IMG/VR virus record: IMGVR_UViG_3300021375_001810
DNA length: 64,000 bases
Reading direction: 5' to 3' (one strand)
Origin: a virus
The translations under genes were made by a program, and so were the position numbers. The notes under the pieces were generated by a model. It was not told the DNA's origin and did no database searches. It saw only the letters and a list, made by a program, of their open reading frames with translations. Position 1 is the first letter of the stretch. Every line of letters begins with the position of its first letter. This document shows, piece after piece, positions 3,383 through 9,896 of this stretch.

Positions 3383-3567
3383 TGCCTATTCCGGAAAGAG
3401 TAACAGTACCAGAACCTAGAGACCCAAGCAAGAAACATTTTTATATTAGTCTTGTAAAAAGTGGGGTTAGAATTGTAGCAGGAATTGCTCTTTTCATGGG
3501 TGGTTATGCGGCCGCTGGTGTGTTGTTTATCGGAGCAGAACTTTTAGGTATTGCGGAGGAATTATAA
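3382..3567 (+). CDS. small membrane protein
   Basis: hydrophobic C-half, coupled ORF. Confidence 0.65.
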   Translation: MPIPERVTVPEPRDPSKKHFYISLVKSGVRIVAGIALFMGGYAAAGVLFIGAELLGIAEEL

Positions 3568-3878
3568 TGAGTGCAGCCGCTATGAGAGTTGACGAACTAA
3601 AAGAGTTTGTTGCTGAGAAAAAAGGTATTCCAACTGAAGAAGCACTAACTAAAATGTTACAAGAAAATGTTTTAGTAGTAACATTCAATAAACTTGATGG
3701 TGCTGAAAGAGTAATGACATGTACAAAATCGTTCAAAGTCATTCCAGAAGAAAATCACCCTAAAGACAGTAACACGAAACCTAAATTAGGTACTGTCACA
3801 GTTTGGGACACAAACGCTAAAGGTTGGCGTAGTTTCAAATATGATCGTGTAACAAAAGTAGAAGAAGGGAACGTTTAA
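3567..3878 (+). CDS. WYL_2/DUF2693-like SH3 beta-barrel protein
   Basis: VTFNKLDG.ER.M.CT and VWD....GWRSF motifs. Confidence 0.75.
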   Translation: MSAAAMRVDELKEFVAEKKGIPTEEALTKMLQENVLVVTFNKLDGAERVMTCTKSFKVIPEENHPKDSNTKPKLGTVTVWDTNAKGWRSFKYDRVTKVEEGNV

Positions 3879-3886
3879 ACTTATTC

Positions 3887-3976
3887 GGAGAGTTGGCTGA
3901 GTGGTCGAAAGCGGCACCCTGCTAAGGTGTTATACGGGCAACTGTATCGAGGGTTCGAATCCCTCACTCTCCGCCA
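3887..3976 (+). tRNA. tRNA-Ser(GCT)
   Basis: cloverleaf, CACC-CT-GCT-AA-GGTG anticodon arm, long variable arm, GTTCGAATC, encoded CCA. Confidence 0.95.
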
Positions 3977-3980
3977 AGAT

Positions 3981-4054
3981 GCGGGTGTAGTATAATGGTA
4001 TTATCACAGCCTTCCAAGCTGAGGACAGGGGTTCGATTCCCCTCACCCGCTCCA
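3981..4054 (+). tRNA. tRNA-Gly(TCC)
   Basis: GCGGGTG/CACCCGC acceptor, CT-TCC-AA loop, TCCA end. Confidence 0.95.
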
Positions 4055-4097
4055 TTAACTAGTAGTACAAACTAATAAGTAATCAGAGGTTACATTT

Positions 4098-4388
4098 ATG
4101 AAGATTCGCCCATTACACGATCGAGTGATCGTACGTCGTGAGGAAGAAGAAAAGAAAACAGCAGGTGGTATTTTCCTACCTGGTACAGCACAAGAAAAAC
4201 CTAACCAAGGAGAAGTAATTGCCGTCGGCAGTGGAAGGGTTTTAGAAAACGGAGAAGTTACTCCAGTCGATGTTAATGTCGGTGACATTATTGTATTTGG
4301 TCAATTTGCCGGTAGTGATAAGATTGATGCAGACGGTGAAGAACTAATTATTCTTAGCGAAGGCGATATTAAAGCCGTAATTGAATAG
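4098..4388 (+). CDS. groES: co-chaperonin GroES (bacterial-like)
   Basis: [33 protein letters not shown]. Confidence 0.96.
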
Positions 4389-4455
4389 AAAGGAAGCGTA
4401 GAGCCGCTTTAGAAAAGAAGGCAAGTAAGCGTCGATAAATAATTGACGCAATTAT

Positions 4456-4531
4456 GCTCCCGTAGCTCAGCAGGCAGAGCAACTGATTTGTAATCAGTAG
4501 GTCGTTGGTTCGATTCCGACCGGGAGCTCCA
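4456..4531 (+). tRNA. tRNA-Thr(TGT)
   Basis: GCTCCCG/CGGGAGC acceptor, TT-TGT-AA loop, CCA. Confidence 0.95.
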
Positions 4532-4537
4532 CTTTTT

Positions 4538-4612
4538 TCCGCAGTAGCTCAGTGGTAGAGCAGTTGACTGTTAATCAATTGGTCGTAGGTTCGACCCCTA
4601 CCTGCGGAGCCA
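4538..4612 (+). tRNA. tRNA-Asn(GTT)
   Basis: TCCGCAG/CTGCGGA acceptor, CT-GTT-AA loop, GCCA. Confidence 0.95.
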
Positions 4613-4681
4613 TCTTTTTACTTGACACATCTATTATTAGATGTTATGTTAGTATAGTAGAAACAAAGAAAGGACCCTAAG

Positions 4682-4987
4682 ATGAGAGAATGGGTATACA
4701 ACTGTTGGAATGTAGTAATGGATCACGAAAAGAATCCACTAAGTAATATTCCGGATTTTAGTACACGACATATGATCATGCAGGTACTAGCATGGATGTG
4801 GTGTATTGTGTTTGCTATCATCGTAGGTAGCATGTGGGCAGGCGTCATTAGTATGGTGCTTCATGCATTGTTGCTAGGTGCGATTGCAGTTACAGTAGTA
4901 ACATTTGAAACAGCAAAACGCAATCCAAAAATGTTTGTACGTGATAATATAATTAACTCTCGCGGTGTTGGTGGCGAACATGAGTGA
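4682..4987 (+). CDS. membrane protein (W..VMD...NPL..IPD family), paralog of 10008..10418
   Basis: two TM helices; motif shared with second copy. Confidence 0.75.
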   Translation: MREWVYNCWNVVMDHEKNPLSNIPDFSTRHMIMQVLAWMWCIVFAIIVGSMWAGVISMVLHALLLGAIAVTVVTFETAKRNPKMFVRDNIINSRGVGGEHE

Positions 4988-5306
4988 TTACACTTGCGAC
5001 AACTGGGTAGTTATCAAGATGAAAGGCGATGATCCTCACTATCGTCTTCTTGTTGGAACATCTGGCGGTTACTTAGATGGCGACAGTTGGCGTATGAACA
5101 GCGGTATCACGGGTGTAGAGAAACAGGCATATCTGTATGGATTCTATGGTAGTTCTGGTTCTGTGTATTGGTGCCATCAAGGAGGTTACGGGTTGCGTAT
5201 GAATAACGCCGGCGTGTATAATCAACTTAAAGAACGCTTTGGGGATACAGTTGAACTGATGCCTGAAGATACAGACTGGATGAATATGGATTGGATTATC
5301 ACTTAG
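4980..5306 (+). CDS. conserved hypothetical phage protein
   Basis: GGYLDGDSWRMNSGI and GSSGSVY motifs; ATG at 4980 preferred over 4965. Confidence 0.7.
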   Translation: MSDYTCDNWVVIKMKGDDPHYRLLVGTSGGYLDGDSWRMNSGITGVEKQAYLYGFYGSSGSVYWCHQGGYGLRMNNAGVYNQLKERFGDTVELMPEDTDWMNMDWIIT

Positions 5307-5309
5307 AGG

Positions 5310-5343
5310 TTGACACAACAAAATAAAGAGTGTATTATAAATA
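5310..5343 (+). promoter_or_regulatory. overlapping sigma70 (TTGACA-N17-TATTAT) and late (TATAAATA) promoters
   Basis: motifs at 5310-5315, 5333-5338 and 5336-5343. Confidence 0.7.
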
Positions 5344-5369
5344 CATAATAAGGAATACGGAATACTAAC

Positions 5370-5429
5370 ATGTCACAGACTAACACAATTTATATTACAA
5401 ATTGGCCACCTACCGGGGGTATGTCTTGA
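5370..5429 (+). CDS. putative leader peptide MSQTNTIYITNWPPTGGMS (19 aa)
   Basis: ATG..TGA ORF between promoter and terminator; below ORF-track cutoff. Confidence 0.5.
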   Translation: MSQTNTIYITNWPPTGGMS

Positions 5430-5457
5430 CGTGACTTTTTAAAAAGTTATTTTAAGC

Positions 5458-5494
5458 AAGCCCCTAGCAGTTAATTCGGTTAGGGGCTTTTTTT
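5458..5494 (+). terminator. intrinsic terminator (candidate attenuator)
   Basis: AAGCCCCTAGC / GTTAGGGGCTT stem followed by a T7 run. Confidence 0.85.
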
Positions 5495-5584
5495 ATAAAC
5501 TACACTACGCCTTACTGCAATAAGGTGTTTTTGCAGAGACAGAGGCCTCGAAAGGGCTAAAGATAGTGTAGTTCATAAAAAAAG
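5487..5584 (+). ncRNA. structured RNA of unknown function directly 5' of tRNA-Trp
   Basis: 21-bp closing stem with one mismatch (5487-5507 / 5564-5584) enclosing two hairpins and a possible pseudoknot. Confidence 0.55.
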
Positions 5585-5588
5585 TTTT

Positions 5589-5663
5589 ATGTGAGTGGTG
5601 TTAATGGTAGCACAGCGGTCTCCAAAACCGTTAGTCGGGGTTCGAATCCCTGCTCGCATGCCA
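5589..5663 (+). tRNA. tRNA-Trp(CCA)
   Basis: ATGTGAG/CTCGCAT acceptor, CGGT-CT-CCA-AA-ACCG, GCCA end. Confidence 0.92.
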
Positions 5664-5713
5664 ATTACCACTTTCTTGACTTTTAATTAAAAAGAAGTAT
5701 AATTATATTATAT

Positions 5714-5789
5714 GGGGCTGTAGCTCAGTTGGGAGAGCGACTGGTTTGCATCCAGTAGGTCGTAGGTTCGATCCCTATCAGCTCCACCA
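5714..5789 (+). tRNA. tRNA-Ala(TGC)
   Basis: GGGGCTG/CAGCTCC with G3.U70 identity pair, TT-TGC-AT loop, ACCA; own TTGACT-N16-TATAAT promoter at 5676-5703. Confidence 0.95.
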
Positions 5790-5797
5790 TTTTAATT

Positions 5798-6253
5798 ATG
5801 AAAGAATTAGTAGTTTTAGTAGGAGCACTTTTGTTAGCAAGAGTGTTACCTATATTAGATCCAAGTTACGCAAACTTTACCCCATTGTTTGCTGTAGCAA
5901 TATTCTTTCCGTTAACACAAAATAAACTATTATCTTATTCTGTACCGCTAGGAGTAATGTTTTTATCAGACTTATTCTTAGGTTTTAGTGCAATAAATTT
6001 AGTAGTGTATTTTGTGTTAGCACTTATCATATCATTATCACGTAGCATTAACAATTATGTTTATACTAGTATTATTGGTATAGGACTGTGGCATGTTATT
6101 GTAAACTTCTTTGTGTGGTTATCAAATCCTAGTATGTCATTATTACAAACTTATGCAATGGCTATACCATTTGACTTTAAACTGTTACTAAGCACATTAG
6201 TATATGGTACAGCATTGTCATTATTATTACAAAGGAAACATGCTTACACTTAA
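5798..6253 (+). CDS. DUF6580-like putative transporter membrane protein
   Basis: R......NFTP..A.A.F, P...M..SD...G, NF.VW, Y..AIPF motifs; multi-TM. Confidence 0.75.
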   Translation: MKELVVLVGALLLARVLPILDPSYANFTPLFAVAIFFPLTQNKLLSYSVPLGVMFLSDLFLGFSAINLVVYFVLALIISLSRSINNYVYTSIIGIGLWHVIVNFFVWLSNPSMSLLQTYAMAIPFDFKLLLSTLVYGTALSLLLQRKHAYT

Positions 6254-8057
6254 AAAAGGAAGAATTAAAAAAGATTTGAAAAGATTATTTAGAATTGACA
6301 ATATTATAACTATGGGCTTAATAGCACTACTGTTTTTTGGATTACGAGCCAATGCAGATGACCATTTAACATACCATGGACACACAGTTGACCCATTAGA
6401 AATTACAATATATGCATACCGTACAGCAAGTGATCACAGAGCAAAAACATACAGTTCAAATGTAATAGAAGCAGACGAACTAGACGATATAGAAGTATCT
6501 GGAGTTGACTTACAAACAACTGGACCTAAAGGACAACAAACAAGTTTGTTTATTAGAGGTACAAATAGCAATCATTCATTAATTGCTATTAACGGTATTA
6601 GTATTAAAGACCATAGTACAATTTCTGGAAATGACGATCTAGGACAAATAGGAATATTAGGGTTTGATCAAATTGAAATTATAAAAGGCCCGGCTGGTTC
6701 ATTGTATGGACCTGATGCTGTTGGAGGTGTAATTAACTTACAATCAGGTATTAATTATAATAATGAATTAAAGTATACACTAGGATCAAACAACCTAAAG
6801 AAACAAAATTTAAGTCTTGGTGAAAGTGTAGGTGCTCATCTTTTTAGCCTTGATATTGAAAAAGAATCTAGTGATAGTATCAGTGTAGCAGAAGGTCCTG
6901 AAACTGATCCATATGTATTTCGTAATTACAACTTTGTATACGAAACATATTTAGACAATGGATATGTGTTAACTGGAAATTTAATTGGTAGAAATAACGA
7001 TAGCAATCTTGACGGAGGTGGTGTTGATGATCTTGACTATACAGGTAATTGGAAATTTAACAATAGACAAATAGCACTAAAGAATAAAACTACTGCGTTT
7101 GTTTATAATAATTCAGAACATAAAAGACAATACACAGATGACGGATTGGTTAGTAACTATAACAGTATTAGCGATACATTTTTAACACATAAAACGTCTA
7201 CAATAAACGAAATAGACTTTACATATGGACTAGAGTACGTAACTTCTAAAGCAGATTTTGAAGTTAATTTGCCATATTATACTTCATTAGTAAATGCAAC
7301 ACGTAATAATACAGGACTATTCTTTGGTAGTGATTATGTAATAGACGGTACTGTTGGGTCGTTTGGTGTAAGATATGACAATGCTAGTAACTTCAAAAAC
7401 GAATGGACATATAGAGTTGGTATAGCAAGAGGCAATTATAGGTTAAGTCATTCAACAGGATTTAAAACTCCTACCGTTTACGAAATGTATGGTATAGATA
7501 ATTACGGTTTTGAAGGCAATCCAAACTTATTTTCTGAAACTAGTAAGTCTTATGAAATTGGATATAATGACGGAGCATTAGATGTTGCGGTGTTTACTAC
7601 TTCAGTTAAGGATACATTGACATACGAAGGTTCAACATATAACAATAAAGGTACAAGTAGACACAATGGTGTAGAAATACAATATACAAATACGTTTGGT
7701 CCAGTAACTCTAGTAAACGGTTATACATTATTGTTTACAGAAGATACAAACGGACAGGATCTTTTGCGTCGACCAAAACATAGTTACAACGGTAATATAT
7801 ATTATGATGTTGACAGTACTACTAGACTAAAACTTAATGCAAGGTATGACGGAAAGTATGACGATATTCACAGTTCGACTTGGCAAAGAACAGAAATGCC
7901 GTCAGTATCACTTTTTGATGTGTCATACCAAAAGTATGTGGACAACATTTTATTTGAAATAAAGGTTGACAACGTAACTAATAAGCGTTATAATAAACCA
8001 CATGGATACAAGCAGACAGGTAGAACATACCTTGCTAGTATTGCATACATATTTTGA
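6240..8057 (+). CDS. TonB-dependent outer-membrane receptor, BtuB-like
   Basis: signal peptide ending ANA, plug motifs SLFIRGTNSNH and IEIIKGP.GSLYG.DAVGGVIN, C-terminal Phe; ATG 6240 has AAGGA RBS. Confidence 0.9.
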   Translation: MLTLKKGRIKKDLKRLFRIDNIITMGLIALLFFGLRANADDHLTYHGHTVDPLEITIYAYRTASDHRAKTYSSNVIEADELDDIEVSGVDLQTTGPKGQQTSLFIRGTNSNHSLIAINGISIKDHSTISGNDDLGQIGILGFDQIEIIKGPAGSLYGPDAVGGVINLQSGINYNNELKYTLGSNNLKKQNLSLGESVGAHLFSLDIEKESSDSISVAEGPETDPYVFRNYNFVYETYLDNGYVLTGNLIGRNNDSNLDGGGVDDLDYTGNWKFNNRQIALKNKTTAFVYNNSEHKRQYTDDGLVSNYNSISDTFLTHKTSTINEIDFTYGLEYVTSKADFEVNLPYYTSLVNATRNNTGLFFGSDYVIDGTVGSFGVRYDNASNFKNEWTYRVGIARGNYRLSHSTGFKTPTVYEMYGIDNYGFEGNPNLFSETSKSYEIGYNDGALDVAVFTTSVKDTLTYEGSTYNNKGTSRHNGVEIQYTNTFGPVTLVNGYTLLFTEDTNGQDLLRRPKHSYNGNIYYDVDSTTRLKLNARYDGKYDDIHSSTWQRTEMPSVSLFDVSYQKYVDNILFEIKVDNVTNKRYNKPHGYKQTGRTYLASIAYIF

Positions 8058-8117
8058 AGGATTTACCTTTAGAATTAATAACCGAAGGTAAGACTTCACA
8101 ATAGAGAGAAAGATAGA

Positions 8118-8315
8118 ATGGTAACAGGAAAAGTAAAATGGTTTGATGCAACTAAAGGATTTGGGTTCATTACCCCAGACGATGGCGGAGCAGATGTATT
8201 TGCACATCACTCAGGCATCAATGGAGATGGATACAAGTCTTTAGCAGAAAACCAAGAAGTTACATTTGAAATAATTGAAGGCCCTAAAGGTCTACAAGCA
8301 ACCAACATCACGTAG
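8118..8315 (+). CDS. cspA: cold-shock protein
   Basis: GKVKWF...KGFGFI (RNP1), DVFAH (RNP2), GPKGLQA. Confidence 0.95.
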
Positions 8316-8327
8316 TATAACTTAGTA

Positions 8328-8402
8328 GGCCCGTTCGTCTAGTGGTTAGGACACATGGTTTTCATCCATGCAACAGGAGTTCGATTCTCCTACGGGCTAC
8401 CA
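8328..8402 (+). tRNA. tRNA-Glu(TTC)
   Basis: GGCCCGT/ACGGGCT acceptor, CATGG-TT-TTC-AT-CCATG, CCA. Confidence 0.93.
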
Positions 8403-8408
8403 TTTTAC

Positions 8409-8483
8409 GGTCTGGTAGTTAAACGGTTATAATTCCGCCCTGTCACGGCGGCGTTCGGGGTTCGATTCCCCGTCAGACCGCCA
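8409..8483 (+). tRNA. tRNA-Asp(GTC)
   Basis: GGTCTGG/TCAGACC acceptor, CCGCC-CT-GTC-AC-GGCGG, GCCA. Confidence 0.93.
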
Positions 8484-8490
8484 TTAGTGG

Positions 8491-8519
8491 TTGACATTTA
8501 ATCTATTAGAGGTTATAAT
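8491..8519 (+). promoter_or_regulatory. sigma70-type promoter for ligase
   Basis: perfect TTGACA-N17-TATAAT. Confidence 0.85.
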
Positions 8520-8555
8520 GTATATAACAATTAGGCAAATACAAAGAGGCAACAT

Positions 8556-9896
8556 ATGCGAACACAACCACAAGACATAATATCAAAACTTGAACAACAC
8601 AATAGCAGATTGGACAAAGAGGCTATTGTATTTGGTGCAATGGGCGAAGGACTCGACGAGTTCTTTGAAGGTGTTCAAATGGCTCTTGATCCACTAGTAA
8701 CATTTGGCGTTAAGCAAGTACCTGAAAAAGCAGAAAACGAAGTATTATCTGCACAAGGTTGTGAGTGGAAAATATTTAAAGAACTTGCAGATAAACTTAT
8801 TGCAAGAGAACTTACAGGACATGCGGCAAGAGATGCTATTGAACTTGTAATGTCAACAGCAACCGCAGAACAATGGAATGGCTTTTACAGACGTATCTTA
8901 ATTAAGGATTTACGTTGTGGTGTAAGTGAAAAGACTGTAAACAAAGTTGCCAAAAGGTTTAATCCTAAAGGCGAAACAAAATATATGATTCCTACATTCA
9001 CATGTAGTCTAGCACACGACTCTGCTAACCACGAAAAAAAGATGGTTGGTAAAAAGCAAATTGAAATCAAACTAGATGGCGTAAGAGTCATTACTATTAT
9101 CCAAGGCGACAAGGTAGAAATGTTTAGTCGTAACGGTAAACAGTTTCATAACTTTGGACATATTATTGAAGAAATTGAAACTGTAATTAAAGATCACCCT
9201 GTACCTTATCCGCTAGTATTAGATGGAGAGGTAATGAGTGCTAACTTCCAAGATCTTATGAAACAAGTACATCGTAAAGATGGTAAACAAACTACTGATG
9301 CTGTATTGCATTTGTTTGATACTATTCCTTTAGGTTGCTTCAAAGCAGGTAGTTGGGATAAGCCGCAGAGCTTTAGAAGTCAAATTACTAAGCATTGGGT
9401 AGAAGACCATGCAGACGTCTTAGAGCACGTACAAGCGTTGGATTGGGAAGATGTAGACTTAGACACTCCTGAAGGCCAAGAACGCTTTGTAGCGTTAAAT
9501 AAAGCGGCTGTAGACGGTGGTTACGAAGGAGTTATGATTAAGGACGTTGATGCTCCTTATGAATGTAAGCGAACTCATGCATGGCTTAAAGCAAAGCCGT
9601 TCATTGAGGTAACATTAGAGGTAAAGGATGTCGAAGAAGGAACAGGACGAAATGAAGGACGACTTGGTGCATTTGTTTGTGAAGGAATTGATGACGGAAA
9701 GAAAATTAATGTTAATGTCGGCAGTGGCTTTAGTGATGCTAATCGTGACGACTTTTGGAATAGTCGCACTGATATCACAGGTCAACTTGTAGAAGTAAGA
9801 GCTGATGCTGTAACACAAAACCAAGACGGAACTTATAGTTTACGTTTTCCAAGATTTAAAACATTCCGTGGCTTTGAGCCCGGAGAAAAATTATAA
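8556..9896 (+). CDS. ATP-dependent DNA ligase
   Basis: KLDGVR adenylation motif, LDGE, EGVMIK, WLKAK, C-terminal SLRFPRF OB-fold. Confidence 0.96.
   Translation: MRTQPQDIISKLEQHNSRLDKEAIVFGAMGEGLDEFFEGVQMALDPLVTFGVKQVPEKAENEVLSAQGCEWKIFKELADKLIARELTGHAARDAIELVMSTATAEQWNGFYRRILIKDLRCGVSEKTVNKVAKRFNPKGETKYMIPTFTCSLAHDSANHEKKMVGKKQIEIKLDGVRVITIIQGDKVEMFSRNGKQFHNFGHIIEEIETVIKDHPVPYPLVLDGEVMSANFQDLMKQVHRKDGKQTTDAVLHLFDTIPLGCFKAGSWDKPQSFRSQITKHWVEDHADVLEHVQALDWEDVDLDTPEGQERFVALNKAAVDGGYEGVMIKDVDAPYECKRTHAWLKAKPFIEVTLEVKDVEEGTGRNEGRLGAFVCEGIDDGKKINVNVGSGFSDANRDDFWNSRTDITGQLVEVRADAVTQNQDGTYSLRFPRFKTFRGFEPGEKL

Follow-up and report, generated by a model that had tools for sequence, protein, structure and literature searches.

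A small genetic element located in front of a phage gene for tRNA-Trp raises the question of what phages use their tRNA genes for and how these genes are controlled. Ideas on the role of phage tRNA genes include compensation for codon usage, replacement of host tRNAs that have been degraded, and evasion of defences that target tRNA; to our knowledge, none of the current ideas includes a dedicated regulatory circuit. The element studied here is found in IMG/VR virus record IMGVR_UViG_3300021375_001810, of which a stretch of 64,000 nucleotides (nt), hereafter referred to as the window, was analysed. The cassette and its tRNA-Trp gene occupy positions 5310-5663 and consist of a promoter, a leader open reading frame (ORF) of 19 codons, an intrinsic terminator and, behind the terminator, tRNA-Trp. 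An initial annotation, made from the sequence alone, had listed these elements in this order and had proposed that a leader peptide gates the tRNA gene by attenuation; each of the elements was located again in our analysis. We consider it probable (approximately 75%) that the cassette is a ribosome-mediated, codon-matched attenuator that subjects the supply of phage tRNA to feedback control, as predicted from the sequence of the window and of its relatives.

Relatives of the cassette

Relatives were gathered by pattern scans with conserved non-coding stretches of the cassette, with the tRNA excluded from the patterns. The cassette was found in 57 IMG/VR loci, which represent 40 distinct sequences, as well as in at least 119 marine metagenome contigs, which contributed at least 54 further leader sequences; the total comes to approximately 90 distinct leaders among the matches listed, and preservation of the same layout in this many distinct relatives is more than chance would provide. 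One relative (L023), reached via a neighbouring protein, carries the same cassette with 83% identity.

The position of tRNA-Trp is nearly constant among these relatives. In the IMG/VR loci, tRNA-Trp is the first gene past the U-tract of the terminator in 42 of 42 instances, at a distance of 0-129 nt, and in the metagenome set, among the matches listed, 76 of 83 modules have it as their first called tRNA; the remaining seven comprise three contig ends, one uncalled Trp-like gene, one tRNA-Cys followed by tRNA-Trp, and two modules without a tRNA. Several relatives (L154, L157, L179, L182 and others) have a tRNA-Trp that starts only 0-2 nt past the U-tract, which leaves no room for a separate tRNA-Trp promoter, and a promoter scan of the window found no promoter-like site between the terminator and tRNA-Trp. 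The view of the initial annotation that tRNA-Trp is transcribed through the terminator, rather than from a separate promoter downstream of it, is thus consistent with both observations.

Codons near the Trp codon match the tRNAs behind the terminator

The correspondence between leader codons and downstream tRNAs is, in our judgement, the decisive sequence-based evidence for a predicted attenuator. A first test, which considered the whole leader in 25 modules, yielded 34 of 44 matches compared to 29.7±2.3 (p ~0.05); this test counted last codons that are constrained at the RNA level and contained errors in the wobble rules. In the matching test reported below, the start codon and the last four codons, which are RNA-constrained, are disregarded, and tRNA clusters are shuffled among leaders. 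By this test, the leader of the same module contains a cognate codon for 66 of the 79 non-Trp downstream tRNAs, compared to 43.5±3.6 after shuffling (0 of 50000 shuffles), and, when only one representative per peptide family was used and the best family was removed, 28 of 33 were matched compared to 19.9±2.2 (p = 8e-5). As a control, tRNAs encoded upstream of the leader on the same contigs were evaluated in the same manner; these showed no excess of matches (35 of 88 compared to 34.8±3.1, p = 0.54), and general codon usage or the overall tRNA set of the phage is therefore not the explanation.

The matches also have a preferred location within the leader. For codons within three positions of the UGG on either side (W-3 to W+3), 46 of 60 tRNAs were matched compared to 27.7±2.5 after shuffling, whereas codons farther upstream of the UGG accounted for 11 of 60 compared to 7.7±2.0 (p = 0.08); the matches are thus concentrated where an attenuator mechanism predicts them to be. 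This result was replicated with 50 leaders that were new from the metagenome scan, among which 50 of 56 tRNAs were matched near the UGG (33.8±2.2 after shuffling) and 8 of 56, a non-significant number, by codons far from it. Broken down by anticodon, a cognate codon near the UGG was found for 37 of 37 tRNA-Cys, 28 of 28 tRNA-Pro, 13 of 13 tRNAs with anticodon CAU, 6 of 6 tRNA-Ile(UAU), and 6 of 7 tRNA-Ser(UGA). The gating of tRNA-Trp by a leader-peptide attenuator, for which the initial annotation could refer to the layout of a single locus, thereby gains comparative support, with the codons around the UGG tracking the tRNAs behind the terminator.

Two individual relatives illustrate this correspondence. 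In L188, ten contiguous tRNA genes (W I Y K Q C M R F H) are located behind the terminator and are bounded by the next promoter, and the leader contains a 13-codon run, MMKHIQQYCIRWF, which uses exactly those ten residues; given the amino-acid frequencies of the window, the chance that all 13 residues would fall into the ten-tRNA set is approximately 7e-7, and only 6 of the 14 tRNAs upstream of the same leader match. In L192, the residues are W-R-R, encoded by UGG followed by CGC CGC, and the second tRNA gene is tRNA-Arg(ACG) in place of tRNA-Pro.

Conservation of the leader ORF

As the initial annotation anticipated for a functional leader, the ORF is conserved; an ORF of 18-23 codons is kept in approximately 90 relatives (again among the matches listed), with retention of the Shine-Dalgarno (SD) sequence, the AUG, the reading frame and the UGA, and with length differences that are multiples of three only. 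An AGGA or GAGA element is found at the same spacing to the start codon in all aligned relatives. Invariant features of the leader are the start codon, one UGG located 8-11 codons 5' of the UGA, and a G-run of the form NGG GGN, and the UGG is the sole invariant sense codon. Upstream of this Trp codon, variation is as high at the first two codon positions as at the third, indicating that the amino-acid sequence of the peptide is not conserved. The penultimate codon, for Gly, is always preceded by NGG (encoding G, W, R or L), with an entropy of 1.97 bits at position 1 and with GG fixed at positions 2 and 3; a free first base next to a fixed GG indicates that the G-run, of which a run of four G is kept, is selected as RNA and not as protein. 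Overall, the leader thus appears to represent a short ORF that is kept by selection together with its ribosome-binding site, and its translation is predicted.

In the window, the single UGG is located at 5403-5405 and is directly followed by CCA CCU, which confirms the W-P-P motif described initially. The residues that follow W differ among relatives (P-P, P-S, P-L, R-R, C-P, C-L and F-S). The proposal that Pro-Pro is required for stalling did not withstand this comparison, as relatives carry W-P-S, W-P-L, W-R-R, W-C-P or W-F-S instead, and Pro-Pro was rejected as an essential stalling motif. Where Pro codons do follow the UGG, their third position has an entropy of 1.55-1.6, compared to 0.7-1.0 at positions 1 and 2, and this synonymous variation leaves room for a modest effect that depends on elongation factor P (EF-P). 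The Pro codons look like elements with two roles, i.e., as the C-rich partner of the G-run and, where tRNA-Pro follows, as sensors.

Terminator and predicted antiterminator structures

The terminator of the window is a G+C-rich hairpin with an energy of -15.7 to -18.6 kcal/mol; a simple terminator scan missed it solely on account of a loop limit of 8. In the alignment of relatives, 5 of its 9 base pairs change on both sides and none of 500 shuffles reaches the observed score, which makes the terminator real by comparative standards. The pairing of the G-run GGGGGU with the terminator-arm sequence GCCCCU, as proposed in the initial annotation, is part of the minimum-energy structure of 5416-5478 (-21.2 kcal/mol), and this fold has a z of -4.65 with 0 of 200 shuffles as stable. 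The alternative pairing that had been suggested for the G-run, upstream with the CCA CCU codons, was recovered in the full-length fold.

Two ribosome positions were modelled by folding only the RNA that would be accessible, i.e., from 13 nt past the UGG to the terminator loop for a ribosome waiting at the UGG, and from 13 nt past the stop codon for a ribosome at the stop. In all 40 variants, the RNA past a UGG-stalled ribosome folds into one long hairpin (-16 to -25 kcal/mol), in which 4-6 of the first 6 bases of the terminator arm are paired; this hairpin is composed of the G-run with the base of the arm, an inner helix that includes the stop codon, and an A+U-rich tip hairpin. With the ribosome positioned at the stop, the terminator arm is free (mean of 0.65 bases paired). 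When the full-length RNA was folded without a ribosome, all 40 variants formed the terminator, and 36 of the 40 had the G-run paired with the Trp and Pro codons. The G-run starts 12-22 nt past the UGG and ends 7 nt before the stop among the relatives, and is located 12 nt downstream in the window. The same architecture is also reached in a divergent subfamily (L097, L188 and L201), whose unrelated sequences form helices of 5 and 6 base pairs (bp); the L188 subfamily lacks the pairing between segments 1 and 2, which fits with its sensor codons being spread over a longer stretch.

According to these models, the ribosome-free fold has the four segments of a classical attenuator, with the Trp codon located in segment 1, and the predicted geometry fits a switch in which a stall at the UGG would favour the antiterminator and a ribosome at the stop would favour the terminator.

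Proposed mechanism and its significance

The following sequence of events is proposed. Host RNA polymerase would start at the promoter (5310-5343) and transcribe the leader, and a ribosome would translate the 19-codon ORF. When Trp-tRNA is plentiful, the ribosome would reach the last codons and the UGA, where its footprint would include the G-run (5415-5420) as well as the long hairpin's 5' half; with the G-run covered, the base of the hairpin would be melted, the terminator (5460-5494) could fold, and transcription would end before tRNA-Trp. A ribosome waiting at the UGG (5403-5405) would, instead, hide the C-rich Pro codons of segment 1 and free the G-run, which could then pair with the first five bases of the 5' arm of the terminator and form the base of the hairpin of -21 kcal/mol. 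Completion of the terminator would be delayed, so that the polymerase could continue through a structured spacer into tRNA-Trp, and RNase P would release tRNA-Trp from the readthrough transcript. In relatives, a wait at a neighbouring sensor codon would act like a wait at the UGG, so that the leader may serve as a multivalent test strip for the tRNAs behind it (Cys, Pro, Ile-AUA, Ser, Tyr, Arg and others). The net effect would be negative feedback on decoding capacity; with the product being the sensed molecule, the loop would stabilise decoding capacity and not amino-acid supply. Ribosome stalling, the kinetic competition between hairpins and the direction of regulation are steps that we infer from the conserved layout, the constraint on the G-run, the compatible folds and the codon match.

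If this mechanism applies, phages could respond to a loss of host tRNA, including loss due to host shut-off, codon-usage mismatch or tRNA-cleaving defence nucleases; anticodon nucleases as a biological context for the switch would be reasonable, although this is speculation. Full-text literature searches found no report of leader-peptide attenuation of tRNA genes, and the cassette would represent, as far as is known, the first case in which leader-peptide attenuation controls the very molecule that is sensed. The phage would, in effect, monitor decoding speed codon by codon, and the sensor codons would point to the tRNAs that the phage expects to be in short supply in its host. We lean, with some reserve, towards the broader view that phage tRNA operons are commonly under product feedback through a leader that is written in the codons of the tRNAs downstream of its terminator, gauges the decoding rate of each and opens the operon when any of these codons is slow, with co-evolving sensors and with a mobile cassette that includes an optional RNA shared with two-piece transfer-messenger RNA (tmRNA) genes. 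A compact, portable tRNA-responsive switch of approximately 150 nt with a consensus sigma-70 promoter may also be of practical interest.

Alternative explanations

A number of observations weigh against attenuation, and several of them would be expected if the cassette were constitutive, with an ORF that is a micro-gene or functionless, a leaky terminator, unregulated readthrough and a codon match that is otherwise caused. In each of the 40 full-length folds, the thermodynamic ground state contains the terminator, and the antiterminator competes for only the bottom 5 bases of a terminator stem of 9-11 bp; any regulation must therefore be kinetic and may be modest. Covariation, which the initial annotation had anticipated for both structures, was found for the terminator (5 of 9 pairs) but not for the antiterminator, where 90.8% of alignment cells are paired without columnwise covariation. 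The 5' strand is rich in G, and pairing with the terminator arm consequently persists in 38% of composition-preserving shuffles; for single sequences, the shuffle test of this pairing did not reach significance. In the window itself, the attenuated unit is tRNA-Trp alone, as the next gene, tRNA-Ala, is separately promoted; the UGG is thus the only codon with a tRNA partner behind the terminator, and the Asn, Thr and Pro codons beside it have none. Only one Trp codon is present, whereas classical trp leaders have two or more. Downstream tRNA-Glu(UUC), tRNA-Gly(UCC), tRNA-Arg(GCG) and tRNA-Ala are never matched, the permutation tests correct for shared ancestry only in part, and two relatives (L213 and L303) carry leader and terminator without a tRNA behind them. 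Despite these observations, a constitutive cassette appears unlikely. It would leave the conservation of frame, UGG and RNA-level bases in a leader whose peptide is not conserved without a reason; only tRNAs behind the terminator are matched in excess, and only by codons beside the UGG, a result that replicates; and in all 40 variants, a hairpin overlapping the terminator takes its 5' strand from the stop codon together with the last four codons.

The remaining alternatives accept some of the same features and assign them other roles. In the manner of TnaC or SecM, W-P-P could stall the ribosome from within the exit tunnel, with free tryptophan or EF-P as the signal; synonymous variation at the Pro codons does suggest some selection for proline, and the stop codon is always UGA, as is that of tnaC. 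We nevertheless regard arrest by the nascent peptide as quite improbable, since P-S, P-L, R-R, C-P, C-L and F-S replace Pro-Pro in relatives that are otherwise intact, these replacements track the downstream tRNAs, no residue but W is conserved at the amino-acid level, and a ribosome halted at the second Pro codon or at the stop would mask the G-run, with termination and not release as the favoured outcome. A weak promoter-like site that overlaps the end of the ORF (TTGACG, 16 nt, TATTTT at 5426-5453), which also counts against attenuation, could drive tRNA-Trp, in which case the terminator would end only the mRNA of the small ORF. This site scores 9/12 and its bases are conserved in most relatives, but the same bases are accounted for by the stop codon and the hairpin, the L097 subfamily has a spacing of only 14 nt, and L104 has a poor -10; moreover, a transcript that starts at approximately 5460 would contain the whole terminator hairpin and no antiterminator strand, and would thus terminate itself. 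The site was rejected on these grounds as an unlikely source of tRNA-Trp, and we give this possibility very little weight. Least probable in our assessment is direct sensing of tRNA without translation, in which, similar to T-box riboswitches, leader codons would pair with the anticodons of uncharged tRNAs and stabilise the antiterminator. The match between codons and tRNAs, taken alone, is compatible with such pairing; the conservation of SD sequence, AUG, frame and stop as well as the indels in multiples of three are not explained by it, no T-box or other Rfam family was matched, and the leader is much too short for a Stem I platform. Ribosome-mediated, codon-matched attenuation thus remains the reading that we prefer.

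Comparison with known regulatory systems

In the E. coli trp attenuator, a translated leader has Trp codons at segment 1, segments pair as 1:2, 2:3 and 3:4, and output increases when charged tRNA-Trp is scarce. The phage element resembles trpL (Rfam Trp_leader, RF00513) in that the leader is predicted to be translated, a Trp codon is located at segment 1, the terminator corresponds to 3:4, and a ribosome at the stop would mask segment 2. It differs in that the regulated gene is that for the tRNA itself and not for biosynthetic enzymes, in that the leader has one Trp codon compared to two in trpL, in that the antiterminator overlaps only five terminator bases, and in that the element is phage-borne and has no similarity to RF00513 in sequence or by covariance model. 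In Rfam searches, Trp_leader gave no match and His_leader and Thr_leader gave sub-threshold matches on the terminator part (E ~1); with permissive thresholds, no leader, riboswitch, ribozyme or small RNA family was matched for the leader or spacer in 3500-9000 and 5440-5600.

The leaders of ilvGMEDA (Ile, Val and Leu) and thr (Thr and Ile) contain codons for several amino acids of the downstream pathways. Similarly, codons around the phage UGG correspond to several downstream tRNAs; here, however, single codons for up to ten tRNAs are found instead of runs of a few amino acids, the targets are tRNA genes, and the set of sensors changes from phage to phage with the tRNA set. Among cases in which attenuation acts on a component of the translation apparatus, the nearest is E. 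coli pheM-pheST, where a leader peptide controls phenylalanyl-tRNA synthetase via charged tRNA; in that case a synthetase and not a tRNA gene is regulated, and the system is cellular and not viral. In T-box riboswitches, as proposed here, tRNA status decides between terminator and antiterminator, but the T-box binds tRNA directly and without translation, whereas the phage leader, with a length of approximately 150 nt, conserves the features of an ORF. No T-box match was obtained at E up to 10 in 5440-5600 or at E up to 1 in 3500-9000, and no Stem I or T-box motif was present.

Features of the locus

The coordinates of the features of the cassette and of the adjacent tRNA-Ala are given in Table 1. 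The promoter arrangement, i.e., a sigma-70-type promoter with a late-like motif, also heads most relatives; two relatives lack a -35, and promoter type varies among relatives. In the SD region of the window, a 7-nt tandem duplication at 5350-5363 (GGAATAC twice), which is not found in relatives, places GGA motifs 15 and 8 nt from the ATG.

Table 1. Features of the attenuator cassette and adjacent genes in the window
Feature	Position	Strand	Remarks
Promoter, sigma-70-type	5310-5343	+	-35 TTGACA at 5310-5315, 17-nt spacer, -10 TATTAT at 5333-5338; 11/12
T4-late-like motif, TATAAATA	5336-5343	+	Overlaps sigma-70-type promoter
Shine-Dalgarno region	5350-5361	+	AAGGA, then GGAATAC in duplicate; proximal GGA 8 nt 5' of ATG
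Leader ORF, 19 codons	5370-5429	+	ATG at 5370, UGA stop at 5427-5429; translation predicted
Sensor codons (predicted), UGG ± three codons	5394-5414	+	W-3 to W+3 match downstream tRNAs in relatives
Segment 1 (G CCA CCU)	5405-5411	+	Partner of G-run when ribosome-free; full-length minimum-energy fold
Segment 2, G-run GGGGGU	5415-5420	+	Within last codons of leader ORF
Antiterminator hairpin (predicted)	5416-5464	+	G-run with first 5 nt of terminator arm
Antiterminator interior	5422-5429 with 5452-5458 (inner helix); 5431-5450 (A+U-rich tip hairpin)	+	Predicted fold
Intrinsic terminator, segments 3 and 4	5460-5494	+	5460-5468 with 5479-5487; U7 at 5488-5494
Structured RNA spacer, 74 nt, optional	5499-5572	+	P1: 5499-5507 with 5564-5572
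Spacer inner helices	P2: 5508-5514 with 5521-5527; P4: 5544-5548 with 5554-5558	+	Fold
tRNA-Trp, anticodon CCA	5589-5663	+	ARAGORN; Rfam tRNA 56.3 bits; the gene predicted to be regulated
Promoter of tRNA-Ala	5676-5703	+	TTGACT, 16 nt, TATAAT; 11/12; downstream limit of attenuated unit
tRNA-Ala	5714-5789	+	Next gene after tRNA-Trp; own promoter

Distribution and mobility of the cassette

A blastn search of 5200-5800 against 50,697 phage records matched tRNAs only and identified no cultured relative of the cassette, and the nearest virus record compared (G001, a 30-kb fragment) does not contain the cassette region. Exact-pattern scans of 185,579 prokaryote genomes with the 3' part of the leader and the spacer core yielded no match; no cellular origin is thus seen. 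L081 and L082, to which the window is most closely related in its flanking genes (99% identity in the next protein), do not carry the cassette, which indicates a mosaic, exchangeable module, and comparison of these sequences suggests that the cassette is a mosaic insertion or replacement. Positions 2480-2790 of L081 and L082, which correspond to 4965-5588 of the window, contain neither attenuator nor spacer nor the 113-amino-acid (aa) ORF that precedes the window promoter; two small ORFs, one of which resembles a membrane peptide, are located directly 5' of tRNA-Trp instead.

Individual relatives depart from the common layout in other ways. L213 and L303, the two relatives without a tRNA, may have cassettes that decayed or were put to another use; a protein ORF begins right past the U-tract in L303. 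In L267, a leader peptide identical to that of the window is followed by the spacer, tRNA-Cys and tRNA-Trp, with no Cys codon in the leader; this exception to the codon-match rule looks like a recent recombinant. L160 (and L175) carry, between the first terminator and tRNA-Trp, a second mini-ORF of 15 codons with its own SD sequence and a W-R-W motif, which could be a tandem second sensor. L097 retains a remnant of the SD stretch of an L160-type second mini-ORF.

A structured spacer shared with permuted tmRNA genes

The spacer between terminator and tRNA-Trp (5499-5572) folds into a closed multi-helix structure in which, across relatives, 8 pairs change on both sides; none of 500 shuffles reaches the observed covariation score. 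A loop at 5515-5520 (CUGCAA) is complementary to an invariant strand at 5531-5536 (UUGCAG), and the two could form a pseudoknot, as predicted from this complementarity. The spacer sequence family was found in 67 viral loci, among them L083:1597-1688, in three settings, i.e., behind the attenuator, before a tRNA-Cys without a leader (L084 and L111), and, most often, in circularly permuted tmRNA genes of related marine phage contigs, where it occupies the interval from the CCA end to the 5' G as defined by ARAGORN and Rfam tmRNA models. Approximately half of the attenuators do not have the spacer, which is thus not part of the switch. It is always located just 5' of an RNase P site; we read it as a processing or insulating module, and it may be a processing signal or a ribozyme.

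Intervening segments of permuted tmRNA genes are removed by tRNA-processing enzymes (PMC11915505). The intervening segment of the two-piece tmRNA and the window spacer belong to the same sequence family; the window spacer, however, is located between a terminator and a tRNA and does not interrupt a tmRNA gene. For this intervening segment, PMC11915505 and PMC9004378 describe no structure that is conserved and covaries. The spacer was not called by ARAGORN and matched neither the tRNA family nor another family in Rfam. Complementarity of the loop to a downstream strand led to consideration of a pistol-like or other self-cleaving ribozyme, but no ribozyme model matches. A glutamine riboswitch has been reported in ssrA of phage Melnitz (PMC9004378); as an identity for the spacer it was rejected, as L083 matches tmRNA models only and the spacer is an insertion relative to these. 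The spacer thus provides a second lead, namely a conserved, covarying and unclassified structure that is common to tRNA leaders and to an excised tmRNA segment. In L151, L152, L162 and L279, a different spacer of approximately 65 nt is found in the same place, with a similar closing stem and an unrelated interior.

The phage and its tRNA region

The phage from which the window derives is large, marine and T4-superfamily-like. Its DNA polymerase shares 45.8% identity with that of Agrobacterium phage Atu_ph07, and PHROG matches were also obtained. Related contigs encode two-piece tmRNAs with alphaproteobacterial tags; judged by these, they recall the pelagimyophage/Melnitz group described in PMC9004378.

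In the tRNA region, a GroES-like gene, genes for a membrane protein and a TonB-dependent receptor, and a CspA-like gene, located at 4098-4388, 5798-8057 and 8118-8315, are interleaved with the tRNA genes; the CspA-like gene has a weak match to the cspA thermoregulator (28 bits, below threshold). Just 5' of the cassette promoter, at 4965-5306, the 113-aa ORF has 168 relatives in viral contigs, and its homologues include proteins of Celeribacter phage P12053L (67%) and of Alteromonas phage V22, where the gene is annotated beside that for a YopX-like protein.

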